From positions 20,386-84,385 of the forward strand of contig JBAYHI010000005.1 in the NCBI GenBank assembly GCA_041666205.1: 64,000 nucleotides of DNA, in the 5' to 3' direction. Under the pieces are notes generated by a model. It was not told where the DNA came from. It saw only the letters and a list, made by a program, of their open reading frames with translations, and made no database searches. Each line of letters starts with the position of its first letter. The stretch's first letter is position 1. This stretch comes from Patescibacteria group bacterium. GTDB lineage: Bacteria > Patescibacteriota > Patescibacteriia > UBA9934. Both the position numbers and the translations under genes were made by a program. Below are positions 1 through 61,263 of the stretch, one piece after another.

Positions 1-550
1 GTATTTCTTTTTTACTTTTGACGGTAAGAATAGCTTGAGCTAATTCTAAAATTGCGTCACCCTCGTTCTTCCCAACCAGTTCCTTGATCATTCCTTCAAA
101 TTCATAACCAGTTTTTTGGAAATCTCGCATTAAATGAACCCACCTCTCATCTCGAATTTTTGCTGTAAGCGTCTTGATTTGTTCAGCCGGCAATGAATTA
201 ATAATTTGAAGAAAACGATCCACGACTTCCGGATTAAAATTTGCTTGAGATATCGAAACGGAGGCAATAATCTCTGTAACTTTTTGTGGATTCTTTTCTG
301 CCATTCGAGTCAAATACTCGAGCTCAGACATACGATACGAATATCGCATTGGGTCTTCTGCTTTATTTTTTATCTCATCCAAAAATCCTTCTTGCCAAAG
401 CCAGCCAAGCCAAGACTCATCTGCTAGTGAAAAGAAAAATCGTTTAGCGTCTTCATTCACCTGTAGACTTTGTGCGACAAAAACATCAGCGCAGTCAGTA
501 CCGGCTGCGAAAAATTCGCCTATTCTTTTATGTAATTCAAGCTGGCTCAT
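1..550 (-). CDS. hypothetical helical protein; start codon (ATG) at 550, C-terminus cut by the window edge; fourth gene of the MazG/DUF2075/CHAT operon
   Basis: Open frame on minus strand from ATG at 550 to window start (MSQLELHKRIGEFFAAG...). Start lies 1 nt after the CHAT gene stop (552-554), indicating tight coupling. No recognisable motif. Not in supplied ORF track because it has no stop inside the window. Confidence 0.45.
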   Translation of the reverse strand, partial: MSQLELHKRIGEFFAAGTDCADVFVAQSLQVNEDAKRFFFSLADESWLGWLWQEGFLDEIKNKAEDPMRYSYRMSELEYLTRMAEKNPQKVTEIIASVSISQANFNPEVVDRFLQIINSLPAEQIKTLTAKIRDERWVHLMRDFQKTGYEFEGMIKELVGKNEGDAILELAQAILTVKSKKEI

Positions 551-551
551 A

Positions 552-1601
552 TTAAGCATTCATAAATAAAATCGGAACGTAATCTTTATCCGCTTGAGGA
601 TTATCATAATACCTTCTCAGTGATTCCTTATAAACTTCTTCCAACCTTTCGAAGTCTTTTCCGGACACCAAAGATTCATAAAATAATTTAGCAAAGATAC
701 CTGCAGAATCTTCTCCGACTCCATATCTGTAACCAATCGCATATCGCGCAATCCCCTTGCTGACGATTTCAAAAGCCAAACTACTCTTATTCACGGCACC
801 TCCACCAGAATAGCAGGAGGAAACAAAAAACAACAAAAATTTTTTGCCTTGAAGAATGTGGATAATCTCCCAATCTTCCAAAATATCTACTTCATTATAT
901 TGATTAATGTCGGATGCCTCTAAACAAAAACCGCCCCCCTCGTCCCCATGCATCATGATGTGGACGATATTATAATCATCCCAGGCTAAAGCGCCGAATT
1001 TTTCTATCGTTGTGTGTTTCGATATCGATATGTTACTTATATGCAATTGTTTGGGAAGCGCCTCTAAAGCATATTTAACTATATCGATGATCTCAATGAT
1101 TATTTTATTTTTGAGATCTTTCAATTTTTCCGTTCGGCGTTCATTGGAATAGGAGGCTACTAATAATAAACTATTGCTGCTGGGCGGATCTAATCTCTCT
1201 CCTGTAACAACTTTTCTCAAAACAAAAATTCTTTTTGCGGATATCTTTTCCCATGGGAGCTCTAGAAAATCACTAAAACCTGACTCGATTATCAGTTCAC
1301 TGCCATCCCCGAAATCAGAGTCACTCAAAGATATTCGTTCAGCTACAAAACTTACAACGCTTTGAAGATTTGGTCCGAGATTTTTTTCAGTAATATTTTC
1401 ATTGCTCATTCCGTTGCCAGCCCCAGGATTGGTAAGCCGTACCCCCGCAGTTCTCTTTGCCTGAGCACAGCGTCCATCGAATTCAGAAAACAATATGGGA
1501 ACTGGATCGCCTTCGTTGCAACCCACAAATAAGTATTGCCCCACAGGCAATTGTTCCCCGTTGTTTTCTTTCATGTCTTTTAGTTCACAAAAAATCTTCA
1601 T
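552..1601 (-). CDS. CHAT-domain (caspase-like Cys/His) protease
   Basis: C-terminal ~220 aa show caspase/CHAT dyad context: ...VHIMMHGDEGGG (His) and ...FFVSSCYSGGG (Cys in SxCxSG). N-terminal ~130 aa are unrelated/unknown. AT-rich coding sequence. Confidence 0.7.
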   Translation of the reverse strand: MKIFCELKDMKENNGEQLPVGQYLFVGCNEGDPVPILFSEFDGRCAQAKRTAGVRLTNPGAGNGMSNENITEKNLGPNLQSVVSFVAERISLSDSDFGDGSELIIESGFSDFLELPWEKISAKRIFVLRKVVTGERLDPPSSNSLLLVASYSNERRTEKLKDLKNKIIIEIIDIVKYALEALPKQLHISNISISKHTTIEKFGALAWDDYNIVHIMMHGDEGGGFCLEASDINQYNEVDILEDWEIIHILQGKKFLLFFVSSCYSGGGAVNKSSLAFEIVSKGIARYAIGYRYGVGEDSAGIFAKLFYESLVSGKDFERLEEVYKESLRRYYDNPQADKDYVPILFMNA

Positions 1602-1646
1602 GAAATCTGAGTCGATAGCTTATTCACTTAAGTTTTCTTTAATTAA

Positions 1647-3548
1647 TTACGATATATCTTCCTCCCACGTCCCATTCGCATCAATACGACTTCTGAAAAA
1701 CTTTTCTGTTTCTTTATTCACAAAGTACACATAACAACCTTTCATCCCCCGCGTCAATAAGATTCGATAGGTGTTTTTCAACAGCTCGACAAATTGATCT
1801 TTTGATCTCCGAACAACCGTATCAAATGAATGTTCTGGTCGTGCAATCCAATTTTGCTTCTCAAAATCGTAAACCAAATCTTCACCGATAATGACACCAA
1901 CATAATCAAACTCAAATCCCTGAGCCGTATACACGCAACCAATTTGATTTACGCCTTGCGGATCGTGTGCCCATAATGATGCTTTTGGAATTCCGGCCAC
2001 CAATCTTCTTGAATCTGTCTTTGCATTCCACGGACGTTGATAATCTCCGATAACGACATCGTCGACTAACGCGCCCTCATTCGTCGCACTAGACCAAGGC
2101 CAGCAAAACCCTGCTGTCAAACGTGCCGTGTTTCCATGTTCAGCTTTTTCTTTTATGGCTTGTTCCAGAGCCTCCGGCGTGTCGAAAATTTTAAATTCAA
2201 AACCGTCATTTTGGTCCCAAATAGGATTTGCCGTACGTTTGATTCCCAACGTGTTATTGACCCAATTGATAAAGGCGTCCGAGCCATTGCATCGAAATTG
2301 CGCCTCAAGTTCATACTCTAAAACCTCACGGCCTTTTTCTTTTGCGTATTCACGAATGTAGGAAACCGACCCGATCTCATTTGGTCGCACGATTTGATTG
2401 TCGTCGATGAAAAATACGGCAAGTTTCGATGCATCTAATAATTCTTCAATTTGGAGTTTGTTTGAGGTTTTATCTTTCCGTGTAAATCGATTATTGCTCG
2501 TTTTTCGTATTCGATGTGCTTCATCACAAATTAGCACATCAATGTCGCCGGGACCGGCCGAAGCATAACTATTGAAATATTTGAATTGTACCGAGCCACG
2601 CGTTCCAATAATTTTTCTTAGTGTCTCGGTAAATGCTTTTGACCCCGTGGCGTAATGTGCATTTTTCCCCTCAGCTAATAGATCTGCCATTAAATTTAGT
2701 GCAATAACAGATTTCCCCGTGCCAGGACCACCGCGAACAATTAATATTTTACGTCCGTCGCTCGTATCAAGTCCTCGACGTGCTAACGCCATCACCTTAT
2801 CAAAAACGATACGCTGTTCATCGAGCAAAACATATTCTGATTTTCCTTTGATAACTGAAGAGATGTGATCGAGTAATTTCCGACTTGGTTTATATTTCCC
2901 ATTATCAATTTTACTCATGACCGATTCCCCGTTTCCGCGCTCCAAACCCTGCAATAAATATGCACAAAGTTCATCTACTTTTTCTGCTGTAAAAACTGGG
3001 TATTTATCGACGAGGTTGGAGAATTTTGGTGAGAACAACTCATCATTGCTCACCGGATTATAGTTGTGCAAATAACTACACGCTTCCAGACGTACCGGCT
3101 GTGGTCCTTCATAAAAAGTCGTGTGCGTATCTGCAAGATATTCTTTGTACCCGCCAACTTGCGCTGAAGGATGAAGAACCTCGCGCTTCGCACCACCTAC
3201 CCACGTTAAGACTTCATTTTCTCCGTCGGCTTGTTCGGTTTTCTCCCACTGCTTGAGCTCGATGATCATTGCCGTATCTTGAGCGTTTGTATCGACTCCG
3301 CAGATAATGCAATCAAGACGTTTTGACGTTAAAGGCAATTGATATTCCAAAAGGATACCGTGATCAATAAGATCTGCATGCTGAAAAACTTGAGACAATG
3401 CGCGCAACGAATTTCTCCAAGATGTAACCTCAGCTGGCGAAGGATAATAACGAAAATGTGAAAAAAATGCATCGCGAAGAAGATCAGCAATGCGATTTTG
3501 AATATTATCGAGGATAAATTCTTTCGAGGTACCTGAATAGAGTCGCAT
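1647..3548 (-). CDS. DUF2075-type protein: N-terminal PD-(D/E)xK nuclease-like domain fused to SF1 helicase-like P-loop ATPase (Schlafen/Nhi-like architecture)
   Basis: N-terminus has D...ELK nuclease motif (RLDCIICGVD...IIELKQW). Walker A GGPGTGKS, Walker B/DEAH box LICDEAHRI. C-terminal LLTRGMKGCYVYF motif typical of the DUF2075/UvrD_C_2-like tail. 633 aa. Confidence 0.7.
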   Translation of the reverse strand: MRLYSGTSKEFILDNIQNRIADLLRDAFFSHFRYYPSPAEVTSWRNSLRALSQVFQHADLIDHGILLEYQLPLTSKRLDCIICGVDTNAQDTAMIIELKQWEKTEQADGENEVLTWVGGAKREVLHPSAQVGGYKEYLADTHTTFYEGPQPVRLEACSYLHNYNPVSNDELFSPKFSNLVDKYPVFTAEKVDELCAYLLQGLERGNGESVMSKIDNGKYKPSRKLLDHISSVIKGKSEYVLLDEQRIVFDKVMALARRGLDTSDGRKILIVRGGPGTGKSVIALNLMADLLAEGKNAHYATGSKAFTETLRKIIGTRGSVQFKYFNSYASAGPGDIDVLICDEAHRIRKTSNNRFTRKDKTSNKLQIEELLDASKLAVFFIDDNQIVRPNEIGSVSYIREYAKEKGREVLEYELEAQFRCNGSDAFINWVNNTLGIKRTANPIWDQNDGFEFKIFDTPEALEQAIKEKAEHGNTARLTAGFCWPWSSATNEGALVDDVVIGDYQRPWNAKTDSRRLVAGIPKASLWAHDPQGVNQIGCVYTAQGFEFDYVGVIIGEDLVYDFEKQNWIARPEHSFDTVVRRSKDQFVELLKNTYRILLTRGMKGCYVYFVNKETEKFFRSRIDANGTWEEDIS

Positions 3549-4186: not shown

Positions 4187-4753
4187 TTATTCCACAAACA
4201 ATTCATCTTCTTCCCATTTTCGTGGGTTCTCCATAATATAGGTGCGGATATTGCTGAGGGATTTCTCATCACGAACAATGTGTTCATAATAATTCCGTTG
4301 CCAAACCGCGCCACCGGTATTCCCTCGAATAACATTCGCGCGTTTTGTGACCGCGGATTTGAATCCGGCAACAAACGATCCAATCGATTGCGATTTGGGA
4401 CCAGATCGATGTCCTGTAGGGGCGACCGGCCGGTCGCCCCTACGAAAACAAATATCGTCCGTACGAAAAACATCATTTCCACGGTTGATAACCGTAATCA
4501 CATGGATATGATTTGGCATAATCACCAAAGAATCCAATTCGATTTCGGATCGAATTTCGAGGGTCTTCAATAATTCATCATGAACAATATTCCCAAATTG
4601 ATTTAGACGAATAATTCCATGTTCAATTGCACCAAACAAACATTCACGATCCTTTGTGCAAATCGTGAGAAAATATGCGCCATCCTCAGAATAATCGTAT
4701 CCTTGCAGACGAATGGAACGACGGTGCAATCGTGGAAATTTATTAATCGGCAT
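4187..4753 (-). CDS. IS200/IS605-like Y1 (HUH) transposase, REP-associated tyrosine transposase (RAYT)-like
   Basis: HUH motif in VIMPNHIHVITV; C-terminal AVWQRNYYEHIVRDEKSLSNIRTYIMENPRKW with catalytic-Tyr context typical of this family; 188 aa. A REP-like GTAG palindrome is embedded in-frame (see repeat 4416-4443). Confidence 0.7.
   Translation of the reverse strand: MPINKFPRLHRRSIRLQGYDYSEDGAYFLTICTKDRECLFGAIEHGIIRLNQFGNIVHDELLKTLEIRSEIELDSLVIMPNHIHVITVINRGNDVFRTDDICFRRGDRPVAPTGHRSGPKSQSIGSFVAGFKSAVTKRANVIRGNTGGAVWQRNYYEHIVRDEKSLSNIRTYIMENPRKWEEDELFVE
4416..4443. repeat. REP-like palindrome gtaggggcgaccggccggtcgcccctac (GTAG-ended) lying inside the RAYT coding sequence
   Basis: Perfect 28-bp inverted repeat; same GTAGGGGC...GCCCCTAC design as hairpins at 5649, 5699, 5983 and 53537. 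Confidence 0.6.
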
Positions 4754-5668: not shown

Positions 5669-5698
5669 TTTCTTGTTATCTCCACTTTCTTTGGATTC

Positions 5699-5717
5699 GT
5701 AGGGGCATCCTGCCCCT
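5699..5717. repeat. REP-like hairpin GTAGGGGCATCCTGCCCCT (5' GTAG)
   Basis: Inverted repeat with GTAG tetranucleotide as in canonical REP/RAYT substrates. Confidence 0.5.
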
Positions 5718-5727
5718 TGAACCCTGG

Positions 5728-5973
5728 CCCCTCTTTTCTTTGCTGGACCCAAAGAAAAGAGGGGGGAAAAGAAAGGGTCTGTTTTCTTGTAGCCCATCCC
5801 AGCCTTCGCGCTTGGCTGGCCCGGAAAAACGTATGAAGAACCAAACCACCCAGGGCAGGAACGTTTTTCCGGTCGGGCAGTGTTCTGATTGCACCGCCGC
5901 CTCGAGGTTGGTAAAGAGGAATCCGGCAAGTTTCTTTCTCTCCACTTTCTTTGCCGGAACAAAGAAAGTGGAG
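5728..5973. repeat. composite repeat element copy 1: hairpin cccctcttttctttg...caaagaaaagagggg, 87-bp core (5792-5878) identical to 53622-53708, shared aaagaggaatccggc box, terminal hairpin ctccactttctttgccggaacaaagaaagtggag
   Basis: Direct comparison with 53562-53975: core 87/87 identical; flanking hairpins conserved in design; copy 2 carries an extra ~170-bp insert. Confidence 0.65.
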
Positions 5974-5982
5974 AAAATAGGT

Positions 5983-6002
5983 TAGGGGCTGGAAGCCCCT
6001 AC
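5983..6002. repeat. REP-like hairpin taggggctggaagcccctac (GTAG on minus strand)
   Basis: Inverted repeat aggggc/gcccct ending in ...ctac. Confidence 0.5.
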
Positions 6003-6030
6003 AAAAAAGAACAGTCTTTCGACTGTTCTT
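6003..6030 (-). terminator. intrinsic terminator downstream of rpsU (hairpin aagaacagtc-gaaag-actgttctt + T-run on minus strand)
   Basis: Perfect 9-bp stem followed by tttttgt on the minus strand. Confidence 0.5.
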
Positions 6031-6038
6031 TTCTTGTT

Positions 6039-10487: not shown

Positions 10488-11978
10488 GTGTATAATAACG
10501 TTGGTATGAAAGAGGAAGTCTCGGTTGATTTTTTGAAGAAAAAATATCAACTGGCCCCGGATCGTCAAAAAGAACAGAAGCGCAAAAAAACCTTCAAATG
10601 GATTGCGGGATTTTTCGTATTTGCGGCGCTTGCGGGGATTGGCGCCTCGTATAGTATTTCTGCAACTAGTAATACAACAAACGATCTTTCCGGACTCTCG
10701 ATTTTTTCAACGGTTCGCGGGCTCATGACCGCGCAAGATAAAGCGCTCTCCGGGGAAACAAGCGATCGCATTAATGTGCTCCTCATGGGCATTGGCGGCG
10801 CAGGGCACGACGGGCCAGAGCTCACCGACACGCTGATCTTTGCCAGCTTCCAACCCTCAACAGGTGAAATTGGCATGCTGTCGATTCCGCGCGATTTAGT
10901 GGTTTCGATTCCGGAGTACGGCTATCGCAAAATCAATGCAGCCAATGCATACGGCGAACTCAATGAGGCCGGCAGTGGTCCACAAGTGGCATCCGATATT
11001 GTGAGCGACATCCTTGGGCAAGAAATCAATTATTACGTGAAAGTAGATTTTGATGCATTTGCAGAACTCATCGATGCCGTTGGCGGCGTTGACGTCTACG
11101 TGGAACGCAGTTTCACTGACTCGACCTACCCCACCGAAGATGATTTGGTTCAAACCATTTCTTTCTCGCAAGGATGGGCCCATATGGACGGCGCCACGGC
11201 ATTGCAATTTGCGCGTTCGCGCCACGGCAATAATGGCGAAGGTACGGATTTCGCGCGCGCGGAGCGTCAGCAAAAAATCATTGTAGCCATGGAAAAACAA
11301 ATCCTCTCCCCTTCCATTCTCTTGAATCCTGGCAAACTTTCAAAGCTCGTAAATCTTTTTCAAGCAAACGTCACCACCAATTTGACCGTATGGGAAATCA
11401 TGCGCCTGTCGGGATATGCGAGCAATATTCAAATGGATAAGATTCGCATGACCGTTCTCGACGACAGTGCAGAGAGTCCACTGTATTCCTCCACCATCAA
11501 CGGGTCGTATGTGCTTTTGCCAAAACAAGACGATTGGGGCGAGGTGCAGGCCATTGCGCAAAATATTTTCGACCCATCACGCATTGCAGCCGAAGCAGAA
11601 ACAGCAACCACCATGGACCCCGTGAGTATCGAAATCCAAAACGGCACGGCGCTTTCCGGACTTGCATTCGAAACGTCCCAGCGATTGGCTGGCACTGGGT
11701 TTGATGTGGTAAAAATTGGCAATGCTGCATCGCGGGATTATTCCAAAACGATTATTTACGATCTGACGCAAGGCACCCATTCCGCCGCGCTTGCGGAATT
11801 GCAACAATTTTTCGGAGCCGATGTAAAGATGTCGGCATCGGGTTGGATTTTTTCTAGTGAAGTTGTGCCACGAGAGCTTACCGTGGCAACGCCGGGAGAA
11901 TCCATTTCCACAAGCGATACGCAAATTGATTTCTTAGTGATTCTTGGCGCGAATGCGGAAAATTTAGTCTTAAAATAA
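10488..11978 (+). CDS. LytR-CpsA-Psr (LCP) family cell-envelope phosphotransferase with C-terminal LytR_C domain
   Basis: N-terminal TM anchor; LCP core INVLLMGIGGAGHDGPELTDTLIFASF...LSIPRDL...YYVKVDFDAFAELIDAVGGVDVYV. Confidence 0.8.
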   Translation: MYNNVGMKEEVSVDFLKKKYQLAPDRQKEQKRKKTFKWIAGFFVFAALAGIGASYSISATSNTTNDLSGLSIFSTVRGLMTAQDKALSGETSDRINVLLMGIGGAGHDGPELTDTLIFASFQPSTGEIGMLSIPRDLVVSIPEYGYRKINAANAYGELNEAGSGPQVASDIVSDILGQEINYYVKVDFDAFAELIDAVGGVDVYVERSFTDSTYPTEDDLVQTISFSQGWAHMDGATALQFARSRHGNNGEGTDFARAERQQKIIVAMEKQILSPSILLNPGKLSKLVNLFQANVTTNLTVWEIMRLSGYASNIQMDKIRMTVLDDSAESPLYSSTINGSYVLLPKQDDWGEVQAIAQNIFDPSRIAAEAETATTMDPVSIEIQNGTALSGLAFETSQRLAGTGFDVVKIGNAASRDYSKTIIYDLTQGTHSAALAELQQFFGADVKMSASGWIFSSEVVPRELTVATPGESISTSDTQIDFLVILGANAENLVLK

Positions 11979-13933: not shown

Positions 13934-15013
13934 ATGCGAAACGATCTTCCCTATTGGTTGGCCTTGCGCGCCTATGAGAAATTCGGACCCCGCTCATTTG
14001 AGCGGCTTCTTTTGAAATTTGAAACCATGGAAGAAGCATTCCACGCCTCGCGCGAAGCGCTTCTTGACGCAGATCTCACCACCCTCGCCGTGGATAGTTT
14101 TTTACACTTGCGCGAGGACATCCATCCAGAGGCACTCGTGGCGGATTTGGAGCGTCACCACCTAACAGCGATTACAAAATGCGATGAGGAATATCCCGCA
14201 CTTCTGGGAACAATCTACGATCCGCCACCCGTTTTGTTTATTGCAGGCACGCTTCCTCCCGCAGAAATTGCTCATGTTGCCATTGTGGGGTCGCGCAAAG
14301 CCAGTCCATATGGCCTGCGTATTGCCGCGCAAATGAGCGAAGAGCTTGCAGAAGCCGGGTGCGTGATTGTGAGCGGGCTTGCCTACGGAATAGATGAAGC
14401 GGCCCATAGCGCCACCCTCAAAACAAAAGGCTTAACCGTAGCCGTGCTTGCGTGCGGACACAATCAACTCATTGGCCGCGCGCGCTATTTAGCACAAAAA
14501 ATTGTCGAGGCAGGAGGCGCTGTGATTTCAGAATTCCCCTTGCATACGCCAGCACATTCCTTTCACTTCCCCATTCGCAATCGCATCATTTCAGGCATGT
14601 CGCAAGGCACGCTCATTGTGGAGGCAACCAACGATTCTGGTTCGCTCATTACCGCGCGCAGTGCACTCGAACAAGGTCGCGATGTTTTTGCGATCCCCGG
14701 CAATATCGATTCCCCAACATCTGTTGGCACCAATGGACTCCTCAAGGTTGGCGCCTACCCGACCACCAGCAGCCAAGACATTCTGGACGTACTTCGCATT
14801 GAAAAACGCCCGGACGCCACGCGCGCTCCAATCACTCCCGATTCCGCCGATGAAGCAGCTATTCTTCCCTTCCTCTCCCAAACTCCAGTTCACATCGATG
14901 ACCTCGTGCATGCAAGTGCGCTTGGCATTGCAACGGTTGCGAGTACGCTCACGCTTATGGAAATCAAAGGCCGAGTGCGTCATGTGGGTGGGATGTTTTA
15001 TATTTTAGTATAA
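13934..15013 (+). CDS. dprA: DNA-processing protein DprA (Smf)
   Basis: Rossmann-like DprA core GSRKASPYGLRIAAQMSEELAEAGCVIVSGLAYGIDEAAH...IPGNIDSPTSVGTNGLLK. Confidence 0.85.
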   Translation: MRNDLPYWLALRAYEKFGPRSFERLLLKFETMEEAFHASREALLDADLTTLAVDSFLHLREDIHPEALVADLERHHLTAITKCDEEYPALLGTIYDPPPVLFIAGTLPPAEIAHVAIVGSRKASPYGLRIAAQMSEELAEAGCVIVSGLAYGIDEAAHSATLKTKGLTVAVLACGHNQLIGRARYLAQKIVEAGGAVISEFPLHTPAHSFHFPIRNRIISGMSQGTLIVEATNDSGSLITARSALEQGRDVFAIPGNIDSPTSVGTNGLLKVGAYPTTSSQDILDVLRIEKRPDATRAPITPDSADEAAILPFLSQTPVHIDDLVHASALGIATVASTLTLMEIKGRVRHVGGMFYILV

Positions 15014-29723: not shown

Positions 29724-29756
29724 CCCCCGGCCACGCCGTGGGGGTCGCTTCTTTTT
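29724..29756 (+). terminator. intrinsic terminator module T1: cccccggccacgccgtggggg hairpin + tcgcttcttttta
   Basis: GC stem then T-run; near-identical copy at 30057-30090. Confidence 0.5.
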
Positions 29757-29762
29757 ATACGG

Positions 29763-29791
29763 TTGACAAGACGCCTGCGGAACCGCAAAAT
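29763..29791 (+). promoter_or_regulatory. promoter TTGACA-N17-CAAAAT for small protein gene 2 (duplicated module)
   Basis: -35 29763-29768; GGAGG at 29813-29817, 5 nt before ATG 29823; the same TTGACAAGACG.C.GC.GAACCGCAAAAT box recurs at 30097-30125. Confidence 0.45.
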
Positions 29792-30056: not shown

Positions 30057-30090
30057 TCCCCCCGGCCACGCCGTGGGGGTCGCTTCATAT
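30057..30090 (+). terminator. terminator module T2 (ccccccggccacgccgtggggg + tcgcttcatatttgg), paralogue of T1
   Basis: Same hairpin as 29724-29745 with one extra C; weaker T-run. Confidence 0.4.
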
Positions 30091-30096
30091 TTGGCG

Positions 30097-30125
30097 ATTG
30101 ACAAGACGTCCGCAGAACCGCAAAA
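30097..30125 (+). promoter_or_regulatory. promoter TTGACA-N17-CAAAAT for small protein gene 3
   Basis: -35 30097-30102; GGAGG at 30136-30140, 5 nt before ATG 30146. Confidence 0.45.
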
Positions 30126-30145
30126 TGAGCGAACTGGAGGTTTCC

Positions 30146-53009: not shown

Positions 53010-53477
53010 CTAGATTCCTTCTCCGATATGGAATCGATCTGTGAGTTTCTCGTAGGCGTAGATTTCATTTTCCTTGAAAAATCGTGCGATTTCTACAGTG
53101 GCGGATTCAGCCGAATCAGATGCATGGACCATATTTGAAGGCACATTCATCGAAAGATCAGCGCGAATCGTGCCAGCATCAGCCTCGCGAGGATTTGTAG
53201 CGCCAACGATTTTACGAACTTCCGAGATAACGTCCAGGCCCTCAAGTACCATCGCAACCACAGGCGTTTGCATCATATAGCGCTTCAAATCGCCAAAAAA
53301 TGGCTTTGCGCTAAGGTGGCCGTAGTGCTCATTGAGCGTTGCTTCGTCCAAAAGCATGAACTTCATGCCAACGGTCTTTAATCCTTTTCGCTCAAAGCGG
53401 GAAATAATCTCGCCGACAAGCTCCCGTTGCAAAGCATCGGGTTTCAAAAGGACGAGGGTACGCTGTATTTCTGCCAT
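53010..53477 (-). CDS. ndk: nucleoside diphosphate kinase
   Basis: MAEIQRTLVLLKPDALQRELVGEIISRFERKGLK...NMVHASDSAESA (active-site His). Confidence 0.9.
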   Translation of the reverse strand: MAEIQRTLVLLKPDALQRELVGEIISRFERKGLKTVGMKFMLLDEATLNEHYGHLSAKPFFGDLKRYMMQTPVVAMVLEGLDVISEVRKIVGATNPREADAGTIRADLSMNVPSNMVHASDSAESATVEIARFFKENEIYAYEKLTDRFHIGEGI

Positions 53478-53536
53478 AAAATTTTATTATTGGCTGGAAT
53501 ACTAGCAGATTTTATTTGGTTCGTCAAAAATTGTTT

Positions 53537-53556
53537 ACAGGGCTTTCAGCCCCTGT
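53537..53556. repeat. REP-like hairpin acagggctttcagcccctgt
   Basis: Same GGGGC...GCCCC design as the 5649/5699/5983 hairpins. Confidence 0.45.
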
Positions 53557-53561
53557 GTTGT

Positions 53562-53975
53562 CCTCCACTTTTCTTTGCTGGCCCAAAGAAAAGTGGAGAG
53601 AAAAGAAATGGCCTGCTTACGGCCCATCCCAGCCTTCGCGCTTGGCTGGCCCGGAAAAACGTATGAAGAACCAAACCACCCAGGGCAGGAACGTTTTTCC
53701 GGTCGGGCCTTGTTCGATAGCCTGTTTTTATTTGAATCGCCGGCTCGAGCATTGTCAAAGAGGAATCCGGCGTTCGGACAGGAATTGCACGGCCACCTCC
53801 GGCACATCCAAAGTTGTACGGGCATGGCGCGCCATGCCCGTACGCGGGATCCATTGCCGGAGACTGGCCGTGCCCTGGCCGACGACGGATAAGACAACAT
53901 GCCTCTTTGACAAGCGCAGACCCGGCAGCCAGTTTCTTTCCCTCCACTTTCTTTGCTGGTCCAAAGAAAGTGGAG
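53562..53975. repeat. composite repeat element copy 2 (hairpin - 87-bp core 53622-53708 - aaagaggaatccggc - ~170-bp insert incl. 28-bp perfect palindrome 53816-53843 - hairpin ctccactttctttgctggtccaaagaaagtggag)
   Basis: 87/87 identity of core with 5792-5878; terminal hairpins conserved; insert unique to this copy. Confidence 0.65.
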
Positions 53976-53985
53976 ATAACAGGAA

Positions 53986-54843
53986 TCAAAACTCAAAACT
54001 CGCTACCTCGATTTTCTTCCCGTCTGACAAAAGCCGAATATCTCCCAACTGATCGGTACGCAAAATCTCTGCGCCAACCGACTGCAGACGGTCCACAATC
54101 GTCGGGCTTGGATGCCCGTAGTCATTCTCCCCAACCGAAATAACTGCGTACTCGGGTTTCACCATTTCCAAAAACGTGCTCGACGATGAACTAAGACTCC
54201 CATGATGCCCGACTTTGAGCACATCAACGTCAACGAGACCTGATGTCATTTGCGCTTCTTCTTCAATCCCCGCGTCGCCTGTAAAAAGAACCTCGACATC
54301 TCCGTCTTTCAGCAACAGCACAAGCGAACTGTCATTTTCGTCGTCCACATTTTCTACAAAATCCAACAATGGCCACAAAATACAAAGCGATCGATTCTCA
54401 CCCAACTCCAAACAATCTGGTGCGGACGCAATTTCATCATTCGTTTTCCCCATAAACTCTTTTCCAAGTTCCGTGCTGTACGTCGCATTCGGTCGCCAAA
54501 CTTCCCCAAACGAATACCGATCTGCCACCGCATTTAGTCCAACCAAATGATCGGCATGATCGTGTGAGGAAATCATATACTCAATATTGCGATCCCAAAA
54601 CGGCATCACAGCGGAAAGTTTCTCAATCACCTGCTGACTGGGCCCGCCGTCGATCAGAATTTGTGTAGATCCACTTTGAATGAGCGCAGAGTCTCCCTGC
54701 CCCACATCGAAAAACCACACGGCTAATTTTTCATCGCTAAAAATCGTCGGCGACGCAATCGATTGCACCGCCACGGTCACCAAACAAAACGCAACAAGAC
54801 CTACAAATGAGAAAAAAGCTTTTTTCGTTTTACGATAAGCCAT
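53986..54843 (-). CDS. ComEC/Rec2-type metallo-beta-lactamase domain protein (C-terminal module of ComEC encoded separately)
   Basis: MBL motifs ISSHDHADH, GDAG, HHGS; start set at MAYRKTKKAFF (TM anchor); overlaps upstream ComEC membrane ORF by 43 nt in another frame. Confidence 0.65.
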   Translation of the reverse strand: MAYRKTKKAFFSFVGLVAFCLVTVAVQSIASPTIFSDEKLAVWFFDVGQGDSALIQSGSTQILIDGGPSQQVIEKLSAVMPFWDRNIEYMISSHDHADHLVGLNAVADRYSFGEVWRPNATYSTELGKEFMGKTNDEIASAPDCLELGENRSLCILWPLLDFVENVDDENDSSLVLLLKDGDVEVLFTGDAGIEEEAQMTSGLVDVDVLKVGHHGSLSSSSSTFLEMVKPEYAVISVGENDYGHPSPTIVDRLQSVGAEILRTDQLGDIRLLSDGKKIEVASFEF

Positions 54844-61190: not shown

Positions 61191-61230
61191 AAAAAGACGA
61201 AGCAATCCACACGAGTAGATTGCTTCGTCG
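61191..61230 (-). terminator. intrinsic terminator after rhodanese-like gene (12-bp perfect stem gacgaagcaatc/gattgcttcgtc + T6 on minus strand)
   Basis: Seen directly. Confidence 0.55.
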
Positions 61231-61263
61231 GCAAATTACCTCCTCGCAATGACAGAACAAAAA

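Follow-up and report, generated by a model that had tools for sequence, protein, structure and literature searches.

What is the hairpin-rich block that fills the gap between two genes in the genome of an uncultured Patescibacteria bacterium whose nearest named relatives are Candidatus Uhrbacteria: a mobile repeat, an RNA gene, or host DNA that stays in place? The block (copy w2, positions 53537-53985) lies in a 64,000-nucleotide stretch, referred to here as the window, which is part of the 288-kb European Nucleotide Archive (ENA) contig ERZ27249449:k141_1431597. An earlier note on this DNA had taken it for the second copy of a composite repeat, either a mosaic that accretes hairpin modules in the manner of bacterial interspersed mosaic elements (BIMEs) or a family of structured RNAs, one domain of which varies. 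On balance, w2 is probably a near-complete copy of a lineage-specific, non-coding mosaic repeat, similar to BIMEs, to the hairpin-forming doublets of repetitive extragenic palindromes (REPs) called REPINs, and to miniature inverted-repeat transposable elements (MITEs), which acts at the DNA level and is plausibly mobilised by a REP-associated tyrosine transposase (RAYT). The repeats constitute a new family of a familiar kind, that of REP/BIME- or MITE-like repeats.

The family is non-coding, dispersed, and lineage-specific, and it exceeds what chance would produce. At least six copies are found in the DNA of the same genome that was examined, which amounts to about 119 kb in total and is a part of that genome, and two more occur in a sister species (GCA_041661425.1, JGI metagenome 3300037810), whose aligned, mostly coding flanks are about 75% identical at the DNA level; all are intergenic, and they measure 200-520 bp. 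Alignment of all the copies, which the earlier note had recommended for setting boundaries, defines the truncations and the order of the modules from left to right: a REP-like hairpin (R), a terminal hairpin (H1), a three-way-junction core, a single long imperfect hairpin (LH), and a second terminal hairpin (H2). The modules occur independently of one another. Copy w2 is a full form (nhmmer match 53531-53994, E = 2e-153), and the copy at L005:8204-8640 is a full form that lacks the apical palindrome of LH. Copy w1, the first copy of the earlier note (window 5696-5985, between rpsU and yqeY, both on the minus strand), is a short form with R, H1, core, only the 5' arm of LH, and H2; L019a (L019:9683-9977) is likewise short, without the LH 3' arm. 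Copy L019b (L019:15249-15469) consists of LH and H2 only, and w0 (L023:14541-14753, 2.9 kb to the left of the window) of R, H1, and core only. The sister-species copies lie at L007:11863-12346 and L020:10856-11341. The element therefore recurs with definable boundaries, as expected: besides w1 and w2, the same genome holds four copies and the sister species another two, so that the alternative of boundaries that do not recur elsewhere does not hold.

Copy w0 was found by extending 10 kb past the window, and a 22-mer of the core matched two contigs of the Joint Genome Institute (JGI); of these two loci, L006 matches a second contig of the ENA sample ERZ27249449 at 100% identity over 13.3 kb, and the JGI copies were therefore assigned to the same genome. 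An nhmmer profile of the family found no copy in four more distant relatives (about 52 kb) or at unrelated loci, and the rpsU site in two of these relatives carries a plain terminator only. A scan of genome contigs with a 28-mer from the invariant core returned no match, from which it follows that the source genome is not among the GTDB species representatives. BLAST of w2 against plasmids and phages gave no match either; in viral contigs, the stem pattern of hairpin B gave five unrelated coding matches and the LH box described below gave none. As a separate observation, a 3.3-kb contig from the sister-species metagenome JGI 3300037810 (L024) is 100% identical to window positions 221-3521, so the two related species appear to co-occur in one sample.

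Copy w2 occupies the intergenic space 53478-53985, between the promoter of ndk (53010-53477, minus strand) and the stop codon of a ComEC-like gene of the MBL fold that ends at 53986, also on the minus strand. Its R module is the hairpin ACAGGGC-tttca-GCCCCTGT at 53537-53556, and the consensus across copies is (G/A)TAGGGGC-N5-GCCCCT. The H1 hairpin (53563-53598) has perfect 15-bp arms and a 6-nt loop, follows the general form CnCnCTTTTCTTTG-N6-8-CAAAGAAAAGnGnG, and its left arm also serves as the left terminal inverted repeat, in a diverged form; the hairpin is followed by a purine-rich strand able to pair with a pyrimidine-rich strand ahead of H2. The core (53622-53715, 94 nt) is built from an outer stem GCCC/GGGC, a hairpin A with the stem CCAGCC/GGCTGG, and a hairpin B with the stem CCGGAAAAACGT/ACGTTTTTCCGG, and it is 98% identical over the 94 nt to the core of w1 (5792-5885), the first 87 nt (53622-53708) being invariant between the two. 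A linker joins the core to LH (53739-53926, about 190 nt), which contains the box AAAGAGGAATCCGGC found in both window copies (53757-53771 and 5913-5927). H2 with its tail ATAACAAGAA spans 53942-53985, of which the hairpin itself, with perfect 14-bp arms, takes up 53942-53975; the right terminal inverted repeat CAAAGAAAGTGGAGATAACAGGAA (53962-53985) adjoins the stop codon of the upstream gene. The folding energy predicted for 53560-53985 has a z-score of -10 relative to shuffled sequence, and is alike for either strand. The terminal hairpins, the identical 87-bp core, the shared box, and the REP-like hairpin upstream had all been seen in the earlier reading, and each of them stands.

The R hairpins measure 17-23 bp and carry the tag GTAG in two of seven cases, ATAG in three, and neither in the remaining two. 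Related RGGGGC-N5-GCCCCY hairpins are present only at element copies, and none was seen away from composite copies in the host DNA examined. In w1, and only there, R occurs as an inverted pair: the left hairpin GTAGGGGC-atcct-GCCCC (5696-5717) and the right hairpin AGGGGC-tggaa-GCCCCTAC (5983-6005) form a GTAG-tagged pair (5696-5717 and 5984-6005) that brackets the copy with a spacer of 266 bp, while the other copies have a single R. The rpsU terminator (window 6003-6038) and the typA terminator (L005:8083-8118) are the same 36-nt module, AAAAAAGAACAGTC-N4-GACTGTTCTTTTCTTGTT, at 92% identity, and both directly adjoin a mosaic-element copy; this terminator may itself be a repeated module.

The segment that is missing from the short copies w1 and L019a had been described as an extra insert of about 170 bp starting near 53772. 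It does start there, but its actual length is about 156-159 bp (53772-53930), and it is bounded by a direct repeat of CCGGC (53767-53771 and 53922-53926). The 3' half of this segment complements the stretch immediately upstream of it, 53739-53771, and the two form LH, so that the "insert" amounts to the distal part and 3' arm of that hairpin. The sequence ccggagactggcc...gacgg (53858-53889), which had been singled out as a GC-rich dyad, is present as stated but is not a dyad of its own; it belongs to the LH 3' arm and pairs with 53768-53806. The 5' arm of LH (to 53771) is found in every copy that reaches that far, and L005, L019b, and, in the sister species, L020 likewise have the complete LH, which indicates that the short form is the derived one. 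Judged from the alignment, the long form is therefore the complete element, and w1 and L019a are deletion derivatives that share one junction (CCGGCAAGTTTC, identical at two different loci). A simple deletion between the CCGGC repeats does not match this junction (AGCCAG expected, AAG observed). As for an accreted module, only the 28-bp palindrome at the apex of LH looks like a nested addition, and the remainder completes LH.

Comparison of orthologous sites shows how variable the occupation of these sites is. In the sister genome, the element is missing from the site of L019a, where pilD overlaps ligA, and from that of L019b, where a 47-bp dsbA-rimK spacer holds a terminator only. The rpsU-yqeY and comEC-ndk sites are occupied in both species, and at both of them the unit is inverted over its full length, R to H2, between flanking genes that are collinear (BLAST: element +/+, genes +/-). 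Paralogues within one genome are far more alike than orthologues, which points to either recent spread or gene conversion. Hairpins of a CGTC type are nested in or next to w0, L005, and L007; L007 additionally holds a P28b-like unit and a block with a direct duplication of about 33 bp on its flanks. With different module subsets, nested palindromes, and empty or inverted orthologous sites, the data fit a BIME-like mosaic that gains or loses hairpin modules, in line with the first of the two earlier readings.

The CGTC-tagged hairpins form a second, unrelated repeat family of the form ...cgtcattgcgagg...gacgaagcaatc, cgtcatcctgagcga..., with members at window 61214-61254, L005:8143-8181 and 10724-10761, a variant at about L023:14505-14540, and several in L007:11720-12200, often beside or inside copies of the mosaic element. 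Short-read assemblies break inside or beside the terminal hairpins of the mosaic element (L002:1-47; L004:1852-1904, Logan SRR6484324; the end of L021, SRR18595301), and such breaks are seen in both host and sister species. The ENA gene caller also placed a spurious open reading frame (ORF) of 178 aa across w2 (L001:2426-2962). A coding origin of the element was rejected: the ORFs differ in frame between copies, and there is no Pfam match.

The apex of LH in w2 is the zero-loop, 28-bp perfect palindrome GTACGGGCATGGCGCGCCATGCCCGTAC at 53816-53843, noticed earlier at the same place and matched in none of 100 shuffles. In L005 and L019b, the apex reads ACCAGG in place of the palindrome, and in the sister species it is an imperfect hairpin, GTACGGGCAGAC-ccaagc-GTCTGCCC, whose first nine bases are those of the w2 palindrome. 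All zero-loop perfect palindromes of at least 20 bp in the host DNA examined are exactly 28 bp long, start with GTAG or GTAC, and end with CTAC or GTAC; five instances are observed against about 5e-4 expected by chance in the roughly 119 kb. The five have four different inner sequences, and four are GTAG-tagged, the w2 apex being the one with GTAC. The others are GTAGGGGCGACCGGCCGGTCGCCCCTAC (window 4416-4443), GTAGAGACGCGATTAATCGCGTCTCTAC in two instances on either side of w0 (L023:14448-14475 and 14764-14791, 2.6-3.2 kb left of the window start), where each instance with its flank of about 12 bp forms a direct repeat of about 40 bp around the copy, and the GTAG...CTAC palindrome GTAGGGAACAATAATTATTGTTCCCTAC (L019:18300-18327). 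The flanks of the palindrome at 4416-4443 resemble the R hairpins of w1. The w2 palindrome thus has the appearance of a GTAG/GTAC-tagged unit of REP type seated in the LH apex.

The palindrome at 4416-4443 lies in frame within a RAYT-like ORF for a Y1 (HUH) transposase of 188 aa (4187-4753, minus strand), which is about 0.9 kb from w1 with two genes between. The ORF matches the NCBIfam model NF047646 (REP_Tyr_transpos) with E = 3.6e-18 and 65.9 bits, the equivalog cutoff being 80 bits, and Pfam Y1_Tnp with 27.1 bits, over the 23-bit cutoff. Its sole match in the PDB is the weak one to 4ER8, E. coli TnpA_REP (E = 0.0037), in an alignment that covers the HUH region and the C-terminal WQxxxxEH...Y(I/M)xxNP region. 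The in-frame palindrome encodes ...RGDRPVAPTG... and divides the NF047646 match into two stretches; it resembles a REP unit inside a gene for just that class of enzyme to which the mobilisation of REPs is attributed. We infer that the RAYT-like protein is the candidate mobilising enzyme of the element because of the proximity of the ORF, the shared theme of GTAG palindromes, and the published precedent.

In the proposed mechanism, the hairpins of the mosaic repeat would form in single-stranded DNA and would serve as substrates for a RAYT-type HUH tyrosine transposase, which would account for units being gained, lost, nested, and flipped in intergenic DNA. The complementarity of the arms would be kept either by the spread of foldable copies only or by templated repair within the palindrome. 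Side effects on the host, such as hairpins at the 3' ends of neighbouring transcripts, are possible.

Several observations weigh against RAYT-driven mobility, and several features of REPs and REPINs are only partly present. The RAYT-like ORF falls below the NCBIfam equivalog cutoff, is interrupted in frame by a palindrome, and carries that GTAG palindrome inside instead of classical REPs on its flanks. The full GTAG tag is present in few of the R hairpins and is GTAC in the w2 palindrome, the copy number looks low for a REP family, and R is confined to composite copies and not dispersed alone. Neither transposition events nor excised circles nor polymorphism within a population were observed. 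The ends of all copies, like the comparisons of filled with empty sites, show no recognisable target-site duplication, the direct repeats at w0 (about 40 bp) and in L007 (about 33 bp) being different in nature, and no conserved target sequence was found at the element ends. That both species have the element at the same two sites, inverted at each, is not accounted for in detail. Finally, the core junction is conserved even though its sequence has been replaced in the sister species, which purely selfish DNA would not need, and which could point to a function in RNA or protein binding. Each of the rival explanations, in turn, accounts for part of the data and conflicts with the rest.

A conventional MITE, that is, a non-autonomous deletion derivative of a DDE insertion sequence (IS) mobilised in trans through inverted repeats of about 24 bp, with the REP-like hairpins and the RAYT-like ORF as bystanders, is rather unlikely, although several features speak for it. 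The left terminal inverted repeat of w1, TTCTTGTTATCTCCACTTTCTTTG (5670-5693), matches the right-end consensus in reverse complement and has its partner at 5960-5983, and the same 24-bp pair (TTCTTGTTATCTCCACTTTCTTTG / CAAAGAAAGTGGAGATAACAAGAA) occurs in L005 (8110-8133 and 8608-8631); the copies are also short, non-coding, intergenic, and multi-copy, they are present in one species and absent from the other at some sites, and Logan assemblies break within their terminal hairpins. However, the inverted repeats have diverged in w2, and the left one is absent from L019a, L019b, and w0. The missing target-site duplications count against a MITE as well, no parent IS or DDE transposase is seen in the gene tables of the host DNA examined, and the internal hairpins are kept by compensation, which a cut-and-paste MITE would not need.

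A more ambitious version of RAYT mobility is unlikely: an active single-strand DNA system of RAYT/REP type in Patescibacteria that goes beyond copying REPs, builds perfect GTAG-tagged palindromes of exactly 28 bp with differing interiors, inserts them into hairpin apices, and excises, re-inserts, or flips the core and LH as cargo at preferred intergenic sites. The w2 apex palindrome could then be the "perfected" form of the imperfect GTAC hairpin of the sister species. If such a system were real, it would represent a new REPIN-like mode of mobility with a conserved, structured, and perhaps functional passenger.

The possibility that the repeats are the genes of a small structured non-coding RNA family, with the three-way junction as its core and LH as a variable domain, has to be weighed against the way in which the hairpins are maintained, and it comes out as quite unlikely. 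In its favour are the very stable predicted folds (z of about -10), the base changes that compensate one another in LH and in hairpins A, B, H1, and H2, both within a species and between the two, and the sister core, in which the three-way junction is kept with a largely different sequence. In the alignment of LH and H2, 97.3% of cells are paired, and nine pairs have changed on both sides, a number that none of 500 shuffles reaches and that compares with 0-2 in slid controls. Hairpin A changes from CCAGCC/GGCTGG to CTGGCC/GGCCAG in L019a, hairpin B has a G-C to A-T change in w0, and H1 and H2 covary between the species, with compensatory variants of H1 in other copies. Covariation of this kind in LH and H2 is, however, the outcome expected of DNA palindromes as well as of structured RNA, and the pairing itself is nearly all Watson-Crick (two G-U pairs in 222 cells). 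The G-U share of the pairs in the minimum-free-energy fold is 3.6% on the plus strand and 5.8% on the minus strand, compared with about 9% in the tRNAs of the window, and both strands of the element have equal predicted stability, as would be the case for DNA palindromes and not for an RNA made from one strand.

Other properties of the element conflict with an RNA gene as well. At the gathering threshold, Rfam matched only four tRNAs in the whole window, and a permissive E-value yielded only chance-level miRNA and sRNA models in w1 and w2. Neither copy contains a promoter-like site, the ndk promoter lying outside the element, and the element has no terminator of its own. Its orientation relative to the flanking genes and to GC skew varies among the copies of one genome and is reversed at orthologous sites; one copy lacks the core (L019b), another lacks LH and H2 (w0), and the sister species lacks the element at two of the orthologous sites. 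Of the two readings offered earlier, the structured RNA family with a variable domain is thus disfavoured by the lack of Rfam matches and promoters, the two orientations, the independent modules, and the scarcity of G-U pairs, and the best-supported reading is an element that acts as DNA and not through a dedicated RNA gene.

Least probable among these alternatives, and indeed improbable, is non-mobile ancestral intergenic DNA with a host function (a terminator or insulator, a stabiliser of mRNA 3' ends, or a protein-binding site) whose copies are homogenised by gene conversion: it fits the rpsU-yqeY and comEC-ndk sites occupied in both species, the greater likeness of paralogues than of orthologues (a pattern of concerted evolution), the position of H2 at a stop codon, and the several copies that follow terminators, but it conflicts with the inversion at both shared sites, the two other sites that are empty in the sister species, the plain terminator at the rpsU site of more distant relatives, and the varied truncation of the copies. 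Three further candidates were rejected, namely an IS200/IS605 element with an omega-RNA/TnpB-type right end (no conserved tetra- or pentanucleotide in the left flank, no TnpB or IscB seen, and no HEARO or other Rfam match), a retron msr-msd, as the long hairpin might suggest (no reverse transcriptase nearby, and copies without the hairpin exist), and a self-cleaving ribozyme, as a three-way-junction core might suggest (no Rfam match, and no hammerhead core motif on reading the sequence).

Two observations concern other parts of the window. A 68-nt direct repeat, 87% identical between 29724-29791 and 30059-30126 and composed of the GC-rich hairpin CCCCCGGCCACGCCGTGGGGG followed by a TTGACA-containing sequence, precedes two successive small ORFs in a GC-richer stretch (0.53-0.55 vs about 0.47). 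In the sister species, leucyl-tRNA synthetase is 991 aa long (L020:4307-7282) and has alpha/beta-hydrolase Pfam matches between its tRNA-synt_1 matches, whereas the window orthologue of 842 aa (L025:13670-16198, window about 57.6-60.1 kb) is without them; the extra part may be a domain insertion or a fusion of gene calls.

Bacteria of the candidate phyla radiation have very small, compact genomes, and the present family shows that mosaic palindromic repeats of a dynamic kind, accompanied by a RAYT-like gene, are found even there. Full-text searching found no literature on REP/RAYT repeats in Patescibacteria or the candidate phyla radiation. Six copies, combined with empty, filled, and inverted orthologous sites, make a compact case for the growth, shrinkage, and flipping of a mosaic, and the elements have practical consequences in that they disrupt short-read assemblies and create spurious ORF calls such as the 178-aa one across w2. 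Curious points are the fixed length of the 28-bp GTAG palindromes with differing interiors, the conserved junction as a passenger, and the inversion at both shared sites.

Among known systems, the BIMEs and REP clusters of Enterobacteria and Neisseria are similar in being intergenic mosaics of short palindromic units and other conserved motifs, with modules that vary between copies, positions that often follow the 3' ends of genes, and an association with a RAYT-type gene in the genome, a RAYT-like one in the present case. Unlike BIMEs, the present family has a 94-nt three-way-junction core and an LH of about 190 nt that have no BIME counterpart, seems to have a low copy number, occurs in Patescibacteria, and shares no sequence similarity. 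Modular MITE-like repeats are represented by the pneumococcal BOX elements (boxA-boxB(n)-boxC), the enterobacterial ERIC/IRU elements with internal insertions, and the Correia elements of Neisseria. These, too, are non-coding elements of 100-500 bp that lie between genes, fold into stable hairpins, and may affect neighbouring transcripts; they have terminal inverted repeats, which are seen here in some copies, and an internal module distinguishes their long variants from the short ones; there is no sequence relationship, however, and GTAG palindromes are nested in the present copies. Correia elements make TA duplications, whereas no target-site duplication is seen here.

REPINs are reported to be inverted REP doublets mobilised by RAYTs (Bertels and Rainey, 2011). 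Copy w1 is similar in that it is bracketed by inverted GTAG-tagged REP-like hairpins, folds as a unit, has complementary arms, and lies near a RAYT-like gene. The differences are that the spacer of w1 is about 266 bp and highly structured, compared with tens of bp in REPINs, so that an inverted REP pair around a short spacer is not found, that most of the present copies have a single R, that GTAG is often degenerate, and that the RAYT gene is not flanked by repeats.

A close parallel for the palindromes themselves is the super-family of GTAG-tagged REPs, for which insertion in larger palindromes, clusters that carry flanking DNA, mosaic intergenic regions, and a link to RAYTs have been described (Di Nocera et al. 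2013, PMC3733652). The present palindromes differ from these in being zero-loop, perfect, and all 28 bp long, with four inner sequences in five instances, and their tag bases are paired, whereas the tag is defined as not base-paired in PMC3733652. They agree with the super-family (PMC3733652) in their GTAG...CTAC ends (GTAC/GTAC in one case), in being GC-rich stem-loops, and in being mostly extragenic with one intragenic case, and the location of one of them inside a larger palindrome is the same as that of REPs in Anabaena variabilis and Thermomicrobium roseum (PMC3733652).

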